DNA from: Eledone cirrhosa | Lineage: Eukaryota | Length of the DNA stretch: 64,000 nt | Assembly: GCA_964016885.1 (NCBI GenBank) | Contig: OZ024760.1 | Location: forward strand, 4,526,001 to 4,590,000 | Reading direction: 5' to 3' | Shown here: positions 424 through 6,400 of the stretch, piece by piece | Layout of the letters: every line of letters starts with the position of its first letter | How positions within the stretch are numbered: the stretch's first letter is position 1 | Translations under genes and position numbers: made by a program | Notes under the pieces: generated by a model | Databases searched by the model: none | What the model saw: only the letters and a program-made list of their open reading frames with translations | What the model was told of the DNA's origin: nothing

Positions 424-3400
424 GTAAGTTGTTTGTTTGCTGTTGTTCTATATGGGAATAAATATATATTTATATTTTATAATATAAATAAATATATATT
501 TTTTTATTTTACTATATTTATATATATGTATCATTTGATATTTGATATACTATTATATCATATATATATATATATATATACATACAATATTATAATAATA
601 TAAATAAATTTGTAGTATCCTCCCACCGCCCCATAGGCCTCAAGTGGTACCCCCACTTTGAGAACCTTTTGTCTAAACAATGTCTTTGTTCAAGTTTCAA
701 ATGAAATCTTGTTGGAAATATTCCTCTTTCATTGTTCTGGTGTCAATAAAACTCTGGTACCAGTTATATACTAGGTTATTGATGTAGCCAACTATAAACT
801 CTTCTACACCACTTTAAACAATTAGCCATGTTATTTAACATTTCTTTCGTTTTATTTTCCAGAAACTGCTGATGTTGAAACTGTATATAATGCTAGGACT
901 GAGATCAAAGAATTAGAAGAAATAATTCCAGATATCACACAAAAGGTAGAAGGATCTTTGGAGTGTTATTCACTTTAACCCTTTAGTATTTAAACTGGCT
1001 GTAGCCGACCGCAATTCTCTCGCCTCTTTCTTTTCAAAGCGGCTGTAACTGGTCACTCATACCAATGTTTAGGTATTGTTCTCAAAATAAATAACATCAA
1101 AATCTCGTAGCTTCGATAAAATGTGAGATAAAGCTTGTTGTATTTTATAGGTTTCTTGGGTGTTTTAATGATAGGGATCGCAGTCTATTTTAAAATTAAT
1201 TGAAACAAACGGTATATTTCATAAGAAATACAGTAATTAAAGTGTTAACCCATTTGCTTTTAAACGGCCATGTCCGGCCAGAATTCTCTCAACTCTTTCT
1301 GTTCAAACCGGCTGTACGTGGCCACTTATACTGATGTTAAGGTATTGTTCTCAAAATAAATTTCAAAATCTCATAAATTTAATATTATGTGAGATAAAGG
1401 CTTTACCATGAAAATACAATAGTATATATCAAGTAATGTAAGTGCTAAAGGGTTAAAATTAATTGAAACCCAAACAGTATTTCATAAGAAATACAGTAAC
1501 TAAAGGGTTGTCCCTTTAGCATTTATACCGACCATTCATACTGATGTTAAAGTATTGTTCTCAAAATAAATAACATCAAAATCTCGTAGCTTCGATATTA
1601 TGTGAGAATATAACAGTGAATATAACCATGAAAATTTAACAGTATATATAATATAACTGCTTAAGGGTTAAATGTGTACATTGTAATAAACATACACAAA
1701 AATTTATTTCTATTTTTCATTTCAGATTACAGATACAGTTGAAGAAAAGAAAACTGTTGCGGATTTGAAGGCTTTTGCTAAAAAGGAGGCTGCTGAGAAA
1801 ATGGTAGGTTGTTGTGGTTGTGGTATAACAAACAGTTGTCATTAATACCTTGTATGTCAGACATGACAACCTCCCTAGTGCTGCTGCCACAGTAAAATGC
1901 ACTTTAAACAAGTAAAGATACTATAAACATTTGAATTAATAAACCTGCTTTAAAATATTTTCTGCTAAATCATTACAGAATGTTAAGAATTAAATGTGAA
2001 AAATTCTCTCAGTGCTCTTATTCTCACTCTCTCTCAACGCTCTTCCCTCACTCAGTGCTCTCACTTTCTCTCTCAACGCTCTTCCCTCATTCAGTGCTCT
2101 CACTTTCTCTCTCAACGCTCTTCCCTCATTCAGTGCTCTCACTTTCTCTCTCAACACTTTTCCCTCACTCAGTGCTCTCACTTTCTCTCTCAACACTCTT
2201 CCCTCACTCAGTGCTCTCACTTTCTCTCTCAACACTCTTCCCTCACTCAGTGCTCTCACTTTCTCTCTCAACACTCTTCCCTCACTCAGTGCTCTCACTT
2301 TCTCTCTCAACACTCTTCCCTCACTCAGTGCTCTCACTTTCTCTCTCAACACTCTTCCCTCACTCAGTGCTCTCACTTTCTCTCTCAACACTCTTCCCTC
2401 ACTCAGTGCTCTCACTTTCTCTCTCAACACTCTTCCCTCACTCAGTGCTCTCACTTTCTCTCTCAACACTCTTCCCTCACTCAGTGCTCTCACTTTCTCT
2501 CTCAACACTCTTCCCTCACTCAGTGCTCTCACTTTCTCTCTCAACACTCTTCCCTCACTCAGTGCTCTCACTTTCTCTCTCAACGCTCTTCCCTCACTCA
2601 GTGCTCTCACTCTCTCACCATTAATTGTTGTCTTCTCTATTCAATTCAGATGTCCAGTGCTCTCATGGCTGGTACTAGTACCTCTGGGTTTGGTTGTCCC
2701 AGCAGCAGCAGTAGTGGTGCTAGTAGTAGTACCAGTGGTGTTGGGCTCTTAGGTACCAGTGGTGCTGCTGAGGATGTGTCTAGTTCCAGTGGGTCTGTTT
2801 TAGGTAGTACAACTGGTTTCAGCAGTATCCTCCCTGTAGACCCTAAAACTTCTTCAAAGGTAAAACAGCTTTATTTATTTATTTATATATACACGCACAC
2901 ACATGCATGTGCACACTTACAGGGTGTATCAAAAAGGATCATCTGATTTCAAAAGGGTATATATATTTTTTAAACAAATGACCATATAATCATGTGGTTA
3001 GTTGTACAATACATCATCACCGTTAAGGAAATTATAATTTTAGTAAATCCTTTCCAAATTTTTCATTTATCAATTTAAATATATCATCGTTTAAAGTCTA
3101 TCTTCCACACTAGCATGAGTTAGACGGGAATTGTCCCACTCGGGGCAAGATTGGTCGGGTGACCGTATCTCGCTTGTATAGGACTATCTGGCAGGTTTTC
3201 TACGGCTAGATGCCGTTCCTAATACCAACCACATTTACAGTGTGGACTGGGAGCCTTTTTACCGTGTCTCCTATATGACCACTTTACAGCGTGGACTGGG
3301 TGCTTTTTGTCATGACCCCTACACGACCACTTGGTATATTTAATTAGAAATACAGTAACAGTTAAAACATTTGTTATTGGTTGATATCTTTACCATATGT

Positions 3401-6400
3401 ATATTATTGTTTTATAGCCTGTGAAAACAACAGATATATCTCATCTTGTACGAAGAAAAGTAAGTGTTTTTGTTGTTGTTTTTATTAATGTATTTATTTA
3501 AATTTTGTTATGAATTAATACCGTTTTTATTTGTTTTATAATTATAATGGTTTACTATTTTATCTTAATTTTACTATGAAGTTTTCCTAACCACAGCGAC
3601 CTTACATCCTTCGTAAAGAATTGGCTAACAAATTCTTTGTTCCTAACCTTATTAAAATGAATTTAAAAAAAAAATTACTTTGAATATCAGAATTGTTATA
3701 GCAGCATACAAAATACCTTGTATTTATTTCCATCCTTTTAAATTCAATTTCTGCTGAAGTCAAGTTCACCTTTTGATATTTCTAGAATTCAGATTTTTTT
3801 ATATCTATCTAGCTAAAAGTGGTGCTGGTTCAATGAAACAACTGTCCATTTTAGTGTTCCTGGTAAAATAAAAATCTTCCAATGTAATTTATATCTTCTT
3901 TGTCCACTTATTCCTGGGAGGGTTGTGGGGGCAGTCCTCAAACACTCCTTCCAGCGCGTCCTGTCAGAAGCAACCATCTCCAACTGATCCAAACTCATGG
4001 CTGTTATCCAACAATCCTGCTCAAGGTCTACTCCTGGGTCTCTTGCCAGTTGGTTTTGTTCGTAAAATCTATCCAGCGTTTCTTTTCTGAGACATTCTAA
4101 CCACATGTCCATAGTATTGGAGCTGTGATCTCTCAATTCGGAGAAGTAGTGGCTCTACCTGGAGTGGCTATCTGATCTCTGAGCTACACACTTTATAATT
4201 TTATATAAAAATCATATATTCAGTTACTACTTTAGAAATGAAATAATTATTCTTGTAAATCCTTCAAAATTTATCATTGACCCTTTTTATATCAAACCGG
4301 CTTGTTCTGGTTCTATGAAACAAAACAACTCATTTTAAGAGTTCCTGTTTAACCCTTTAGCATTTAAACCACCTGTATGCGGCCAGAACTCTCTCGCCTC
4401 TTTCTGTTTAAACCGGTCGTAACCGGCTGCTTATACTGAGATTAAGGTATTGTTCTCAAAATAAATATGAAAATCTTATAGATTTGATATTATGTGAGAT
4501 AAAGCCTTTACCATGAAAATGCAATAGTAAATATTGTAGAGTAATGTAAATTAACATCTTGCAGTATAATTTTATATAAGAAACATATGTTAAGTTAGTC
4601 TCTTACAAATGAAATAAATGATTAATAATTTTAGTCAATCTCTTACAATATTTTTAATTAATGAAGAATTTTAACGAGATATGTTAATGAAACAGTACTG
4701 ATTGCTATTATTTACCCCCCCCCCCCCGGGCTTGTATCTGTTTTAAATTCCTATTTACATGGATACACACTTCAGTTTACCACAGTGGAAGTTTCTTTTG
4801 GTATATATATATAGTTGAGATCCCTCCTTGGTTTCATATCTATTTAGTTACCAGCCATGTTCTGGGTTTGATTAAATCAACTACATGACCCCTTCCCCAA
4901 TCTGACTGCTGCTTTCTTTGGTCACCCTCCATCTTCTCAAATCGGACTGCCTCTTTTCTACCACTTTCCTGGGTCCCTGGGGAAAATTTGTGACCTTGTC
5001 AGAATTGGAAACCACTTTCATGTTCTAAACTAAGTTTTAACTTATACAAAATAGAGGTGGAGCGGTAAGGGGGAGCACTATGTTGGTGGTTATCAAATGA
5101 TGTTCAGATTGATAGGAAAATATGGACTGGGTGTCGTGCTGTGTTCTTGAGCAACTTGCTTTCACGTTGCTTTTCATGATAGGTCTTAGGACCCCTATCA
5201 TTAAACCTCCTCAAGAAAGCTCCCATAAGATGCAACTTAAATGAGCTGTAATAATGGATAGCAGTGGGGCCCCTATCCTTGAAAACTCCCATGAGATTCA
5301 ACTTCATAGGGGACCAGCTAAACTTACATAGATGTGAGCTATACATGATAGGATTGGTGTTCATATCATTTAAAAACTCCCCATGAGATTCAACCTCATA
5401 GGGGACCAGCTATAACTTTAACTATTAACTAAATCAGCTAGGTTACCTTAACCATCTGGCTTGCTCTGTTGGCAGCGAAAACCTGATACAGAAGACAGTT
5501 CAGTGGAAAAAAAACAGAAATCTGAAAGTTCGGTTGATAACACAGTGTCATTGACATCAACTACAACAACGTCGCCATCATCATCATCATCATCTTCATC
5601 AAAAGCTGAACAGAAAGACTCTAACAGTGAGCCAGCCCCAAGCAATAAGGTAGTTTAAACTGTGACCACCTGTTATCAATATTGTCTCATTGTTGTCATC
5701 ACTTTAGCATTGCTTATATCTCTTACACTTCTTGCCAGCTTTCCATCTGTTGTCATCCTTTCTGTGTGTTTGTATTTTGTTTTAGTATTGTTTCTTTTTC
5801 ACTTATATCTTTAGTGTTGGTCATTTCTGGAGGGTATCACGTCTGTTTTCCTTCCCACCTCTTATAAAAAAAATTTTTTTTTTTTCCTTTTTCCTTTTTC
5901 CTTTTTCCTTTTTCCTTTTTCCTTTTTCCTTTTTCCTTTTTCCTTTTTCCTTTTTCCTTTTTCCTTTTTCCTTTTTCCTTTTTCCTTTTTCCTTTTTCTT
6001 TATTAATTTGCTCACTTATATTTCTCTGAATTACTACCATTTGTAAAATATAGGGTCTCTGGTTTTATCAGAAGTGCACTAGGGACCTTCTGCTCTTGTG
6101 GTCTAGTTTGATCTGTTGGTCAAAGCACATAGAGACCTTTCCACTATTGCCACTCAAGTCAGTAACTCATGGTTGACTGCTGGTCCTCATGGCTAGATCA
6201 CAATTGTCAGTATGTTCCATTATTCCAAGTTATGCTCTGTCCTTAGCCTGTCTATGTACCCCTAAATGTTTTAACATTTCCACATGCTAATTATTCCATC
6301 CTCATGGTTTATCTCTCCCTTCACATGAATCATTGCAAAATTTTGAGTGATTTAAGATTAAAATTAAAATAAAACACATTTTTAATATTTGTTACTAATG

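Follow-up and report, generated by a model that had tools for sequence, protein, structure and literature searches.

Which 3′ splice site does an intron use when a tandem repeat in front of the exon offers an acceptor-like site in every one of its units? The question is raised by the gene of the histone chaperone NASP in the octopod Eledone cirrhosa (genome size 3.0 Gb), in which a 39-bp minisatellite directly abuts an exon. The gene was analysed in a stretch of 64,000 nucleotides (G000:C21:4526001-4590000, hereafter the window; positions are counted from its first letter). The original prediction, made from the sequence, left two answers side by side: either the repeat supplies VNTR-encoded isoforms by adding 16+13n amino acids to the protein, or the spliceosome passes over 15 decoys on its way to the normal acceptor.

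By similarity of the encoded protein the host gene is NASP, with the 3′ end of the gene inside the window. The name, which the original prediction had already given, is borne out by a Pfam SHNi-TPR (PF10516) match of 23.1 bits (cut-off 21) on L011:7948-8121, among the open frames of the 10 kb upstream, and by the human NASP chains that are the three best PDB matches for the exons just upstream (E 6.9e-07, and 0.093 for a further piece). The exon piece preceding L011:7948-8121 scored 15.7 bits and covers positions 4-18 of the SHNi-TPR profile. The exon at 2650-2859, compared with longer proteins among 5.8 billion, gave 2037 candidates, none of them at E <= 0.001.

Four sequencing runs of one study (X1-X4), none of which is on record as RNA, bear on the structure of the transcript. 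X1-X3 derive from one DNA sample, possibly the source of the assembly, and were judged to be DNA because their contigs over 800-5800 cross exon borders (e.g., 1578-1888 and 2574-2947). X4 (one sample, tissue unspecified) was judged cDNA-like from its spliced contig and is kept as contigs, in which rare variants are lost. The spliced contig, record 25/9, is 1651 nt long with a depth of 18.3 and connects 860-943, 1724-1802, 2649-2859 and, after further letters, 5476-5542; in the X4 contigs the NASP transcript continues past its stop codon to at least 5800. The features of the gene and of the array are compiled in Table 1. Between exon 2650-2859 and the exon that begins at 5476 the contig holds 42 nt (its letters 176-217), for which three open candidates of the form AG, 42 nt, GT were found; only 3418-3459 has a gtaagt donor, and this candidate is likely a 42-nt micro-exon of NASP. 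Its PVKTTDISHLVRRK motif is similar to the DISHLVRKKRK stretch in the C-terminal part of human NASP.

Table 1. Exons, intron and repeat segments of the NASP locus (positions in the window; a slash marks an exon-intron border).
Feature	Position	Strand	Evidence
NASP exon (TADVETVYNARTEIKELEEIIPDITQK)	863..945	+	X4 contig piece 860-943 and translation; AG before, gtagaa after
NASP exon with phase-0 borders on both sides, donor ATG/gtaggt	1726..1803	+	X4 contig piece 1724-1802, neighbouring exons contiguous in the record; translation
Intron, 846 nt, contains the array	1804..2649	+	X4 joint 1802->2649, skips 846, GT..AG (cut +1); the joint does not occur in DNA run X1
Degenerate 5′ edge unit, 43 nt, ends in the first in-frame decoy AG (2054-2055)	2013..2055	+	unit alignment score 56, 4 extra bases
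Fourteen units of 39 nt (acceptor register) that all end in CTCAG or TTCAG	2056..2601	+	Tandem Repeats Finder, AG listing, unit map
Last, diverged 48-nt segment with the authentic 3′ splice site	2602..2649	+	first 10 nt plainly array; unit map
NASP exon, 210 nt (MSSALMAGTSTSGFG...), phase 0-0, donor AAG/gtaaaa	2650..2859	+	X4 contig piece 2649-2859; translation
16th copy of the junction 11-mer CAGTGCTCTCA, 6 nt inside the exon	2655-2665	+	window-wide match count
Proposed micro-exon, 42 nt (PVKTTDISHLVRRK), ttttatag before, gtaagt after	3418..3459	+	42 X4 contig letters
Last coding exon (RKPDTEDSS...SNKVV), stop TAA 5656-5658	5476..5658	+	X4 pieces 5476-5542 and 5621-5800; translation

The 39-bp minisatellite that had been described at 2005-2649 was recovered by Tandem Repeats Finder at 2028-2616 with a period of 39, 15.1 copies, 98% matches and no indels (score 1122). 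All 15 of its units match the consensus with at most two mismatches, ten of them exactly, compared with 0.00 expected in 100 shuffles, and the repeat itself is far beyond chance. Ten identical units stand in a row (2173-2562), and the CpG variant CAACGCTC is confined to the edge units of the array. Elsewhere in the genome at least 59 matches were found, 69-78% alike (a lower bound, as the search skips simple repeats). The idea that the array belongs to a genome-wide family or is the tail of a transposon was rejected, as the five loci examined (L005-L008 and L010) are CT/GA-rich arrays with periods of 12-52 and a different unit. One of them, L006 (G000:C1:322828077-322831332), is a CT-rich minisatellite that extends over nearly 2 kb (period 47, 42 copies, 85% matches) and is one among many CT/GA-rich arrays in the genome that match the query weakly.

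We regard it as highly improbable that the array, or its length, is an artefact of the assembly. No contig of any run spans 2151-2478, which could be taken as a sign of such an artefact, but in 31-mer graphs a gap over a repeat is to be expected and carries no information on the array. In X1 the contig depths follow the assembled copy number: 8.82 at the edge, 16.8 for a variant present in two copies and 100.4 for the homogeneous unit, where the 31-mers of the same contigs occur 1.00, 1.87 and 10.33 times in the window. The depth per copy is ~9-9.7 against 8.5-8.8 in the single-copy flanks (in a run that is possibly the assembly's own sample), and since the X1 depth per 31-mer copy is close to the depth of these flanks, the reads carry roughly the copy number that was assembled.

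The array seems to have grown from the intron-exon border itself, where a short segment would have slipped or been exchanged unequally. The 11-mer at the junction of the units, CAGTGCTCTCA, occurs 16 times in the window (0.04 expected), 15 times in the array and once more within the exon, so that homology to the repeat picks up again there. The last 48 nt before the exon can be aligned to the unit if three small insertions are allowed, but when their first 10 bases are removed the likeness of the remainder (2612-2649) to the unit is marginal, with a score that was reached in 224 of 5000 shuffles; it is therefore mainly the recurrence of the 11-mer inside the exon that suggests an origin at the border. 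A slip between the two CAGs at 2647-2649 and 2655-2657 would yield the form of the decoys. The ten identical consecutive units, together with the CpG variant at the edges, point to a recent expansion, in which an A-variant unit, a CpG-to-CpA derivative of the CpG-bearing unit, would have multiplied to ten identical copies.

The acceptor ladder is present as predicted. Fifteen AGs at 2054+39n would start exons at 2056, 2095 ... 2602, and every one of these starts lies a multiple of 3 from 2650, while the AGs at 2011 (start 2013) and 2656 (start 2658) fall outside the frame. The stop-free frame that had been given as 1996-2946, running into the exon, is part of a frame that is open over 1987-2946 and reads CSHFLSQHSSLTQ repeats. 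Each unit contains a single yUnAy match, the branch-like CTCAC of the original prediction, 31 nt before its AG, and the pyrimidine tract, also noted there, is 82% pyrimidine. All three plus-strand frames of the unit are free of stops. Shuffled units were open in a named frame in 83% of cases and shuffled 48-nt spacers in 61%, so that an in-frame open ladder is expected by chance at 1/3 (period) x 1/3 (offset) x 0.83 x 0.61, i.e., ~0.06 or about 1 in 18. With a chance expectation of this size the openness of the ladder is no evidence of selection.

Two further readings were rejected. A Pfam match of the read-through frame 1987-2946 to Lysostaphin_N reached 24.4 bits against a cut-off of 60 and was put down to a coincidence of two 13-residue repeats, and recursive splicing was ruled out, the decoy AG being followed by TGCTCT rather than by GT. 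On the opposite strand of 2028-2616 each unit reads ...CTGAGTGAGGG..., with a donor-like GTGAG, and one minus-strand frame is likewise open through the array; an antisense transcript through this stretch would meet a donor-like ladder.

Across 1700-2900 (differences listed from 1 in 100) the sole X4 joint is 1803->2650, which is of the GT..AG type, is carried by one contig and is absent from the DNA run X1. The spliced contig confirms the donor at 1803 and the acceptor at 2650 that had been named as the normal pair, and it shows the canonical junction to be the assembled form. No X4 contig lies on 2028-2642, within the stretch bridged by this joint (contigs, one sample), and no transcript joined at any ladder acceptor is present in X4, a weak test with one sample and contigs. 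In this one X4 transcript contig, splicing is normal in spite of the repeated signals. The proposed VNTR-encoded isoforms are thus unsupported by the only joint seen in that one sample of contigs, and the alternative that the spliceosome passes over the 15 decoys fits the same joint. We consider it probable that a young minisatellite in the intron has come to lie against the acceptor of a NASP exon, and that its 15 acceptor-like units likely act as silent pseudo-sites, the exon-proximal authentic site being preferred. Two points stand against silence of the units: in-frame products would escape nonsense-mediated decay and would be neither hidden nor purged, and a single cDNA-like run in the form of contigs leaves room for minor or tissue-specific use of the ladder.

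Such use, whether weak or restricted to particular tissues, would yield NASP isoforms with 16+13n extra residues, their range set by the repeat number. We hold it to be quite unlikely, although several properties of the ladder speak for it: each of the 15 sites is in frame and open, with its yUnAy 31 nt upstream and its 82% pyrimidine tract, and since every rung is in frame the isoforms would avoid the degradation of nonsense transcripts. Repeats are also reported to be able to make acceptors that get used (PMC10614865). These properties are set against 1803->2650 as the sole X4 joint, with no contig on the array or on 2602-2642, against an in-frame openness of ~6% by chance, and against a peptide that is a low-complexity by-product of CT-rich DNA, open in three plus-strand frames. 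NASP matters most in gonad or embryo. Use of the ladder in some tissue or stage of this kind, with graded isoforms that would carry 16 to 198 extra residues in the disordered C-terminal tail, is in our judgement very unlikely. Any leakage of the ladder would reach the protein, because the ladder is in frame.

If the units are indeed silent pseudo-sites, what sets the authentic acceptor apart from them? In the four used acceptors of the gene the tract has a U fraction of 0.36-0.68 and a C fraction of 0.09-0.27, with 0.43-0.67 purine downstream, compared with 0.32-0.36 U, 0.45-0.50 C and 0.20-0.30 purine downstream in the six in-frame decoys scored. The low downstream purine content of the decoys (20-30%) arises because the sequence that follows them is more repeat. 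With four acceptors the yardstick is small, and its weakest member (5476, U 0.36) does not exceed the decoys in U content. The authentic site at 2650 has 0.59 U and 0.18 C, with yUnAy matches at 40, 32 and 25 nt; its segment (2602-2649) offers A2609, A2617 and A2624 as branch candidates and continues with the U-rich tract TTGTTGTCTTCTCTATT and TTCAG. The decoys (...CCCTCACTCAG/TGC) and the authentic site (...TATTCAATTCAG/ATG) are not identical.

The choice of acceptor would then be made when the branch point and the pyrimidine tract are recognized, and the upstream elements would be left unengaged. Scanning for an AG cannot explain the choice of 2650, since in every unit the branch candidate is followed by an AG of that unit. 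It is established that U2AF prefers U-rich to C-rich tracts and that enhancers in an exon promote use of the acceptor next to it. The real site would be favoured by its tract, U-rich like those of the other acceptors of the gene, and by the true exon that lies behind it with a donor 210 nt away, and the decoys, which are backed merely by more CU-rich repeat with dense PTB-type motifs, would be disfavoured. RNA structure was rejected as a means of hiding the decoys, as almost no pairing is predicted for the array (20% paired; -0.061 kcal per nt compared with -0.237 in a control intron stretch).

Within the array there are 89 YUCUYY/YYUCUY motifs, against 33.2 +/- 7.5 in shuffles; their density is 151 per kb, that of the window 6.8 per kb. 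None was found in the rest of the array intron or in 2860-3417. From this motif content, PTB-type repression of the CU tracts in the array is plausible. In human cells such motif arrays are described as binding PTBP1 multivalently, and those before CHEK2 exon 8 as a PTBP1 sensor (PMC6224606). The NASP array is like the CHEK2 case in its dense YUCUYY/YYUCUY run directly upstream of an exon, but in NASP binding and regulated inclusion would be predictions.

Another reading would make the array a regulatory platform, on which a multivalent PTB-type protein tunes the inclusion of the 210-nt exon or the rate of splicing, with the repeat number as the dose. The motifs, at six per unit and ~22 times the density of the window, and the almost unstructured RNA would suit such a platform, as would the CHEK2 sensor and a reported correlation between the length of an intronic VNTR and exon skipping in ABCA7 (PMC5954066). 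We nevertheless judge it unlikely: the X4 contig includes the 210-nt exon, no skipped form is found among the joints listed, up to 2900, and the ten identical units indicate a recent expansion and not a conserved element.

Silent pseudo-sites next to an authentic splice site have precedents. In amphioxus, tandem repeats across exon-intron borders have been called 'mirages' and are described from Adh3 (units of 10-72 bp), the globins BflGb6 and BflGb9, troponin C and PGBD5; they are reported to leave splicing undisturbed though many units carry AG/GT signals (PMC3087553, PMC3902484). The NASP array resembles them in its position at an intron-exon border inside a gene, in its many splice signals with normal splicing kept, in its homogenised interior with diverged edge units, and in a unit of 39 bp that falls within the range of the Adh3 units. 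It departs from the mirages in that its unit shares just 11 nt (CAGTGCTCTCA) with the exon, its authentic acceptor (TTCAG/ATG) differs from the decoys (CTCAG/TGC), its host is an octopod and not a lancelet, and its whole ladder is in frame and open.

In human F7, the 37-bp VNTR of intron 7 presents 5-9 consecutive consensus donor sites, of which the exon-proximal one alone is reported to be used while the pseudo-sites are silent (PMC1557585). F7 intron 7 and the NASP intron share a minisatellite at an exon border and a nearly equal unit length (37 vs 39 bp), whereas the F7 sites are donors identical to the authentic one and the NASP sites are acceptors that differ from theirs. The 5′-to-3′ scanning proposed for F7 cannot explain why NASP uses the most downstream of 16 acceptors. 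A minisatellite studied in 1995 is said to carry a splice site in each unit, with in-frame consequences and several donor sites really used; unlike in that case, no use of the NASP units is seen in X4. Expanded CAG repeats can create acceptors for upstream donors and were shown to be used (PMC10614865). The NASP repeat likewise supplies AG acceptor sites to an upstream donor, but in contrast to the trinucleotide its 39-bp unit has its own tract and branch candidate, and its use is unseen in X4. Apart from the 'mirage' papers, our literature searches for an acceptor-side minisatellite ladder gave only donor-side or trinucleotide cases.

The NASP array is likely a tolerated repeat of a kind that has already been described. 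If its units are silent, it adds another tolerated minisatellite that bears splice sites, and an octopod joins lancelets and humans as hosts. It also makes a natural test case, in which 15 consensus-like acceptors with their own branch candidates are passed over upstream of the real one. Because these 15 upstream sites are passed over, it would be the quality of the tract, the exon context or repression that selects the acceptor, rather than a scan for the first AG.

Other repeats surround the exons of the gene. At 1905-1986, directly upstream of the array, lies a short high-copy fragment whose summed depth in X1 reaches 78,150; loose ends are numerous there. Very-high-copy interspersed repeats occupy 967-1634, 3138-3471 and 3806-4640 (summed contig depth 10^4-10^5 in the DNA runs); they have relatives within the window (families D2-D6), and much of the NASP introns is filled with them. 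A perfect (TTTTTCC) microsatellite of 16.9 copies (5881-5998, 100% matches) begins ~220 nt past the NASP stop codon and is probably part of the NASP 3′ UTR.
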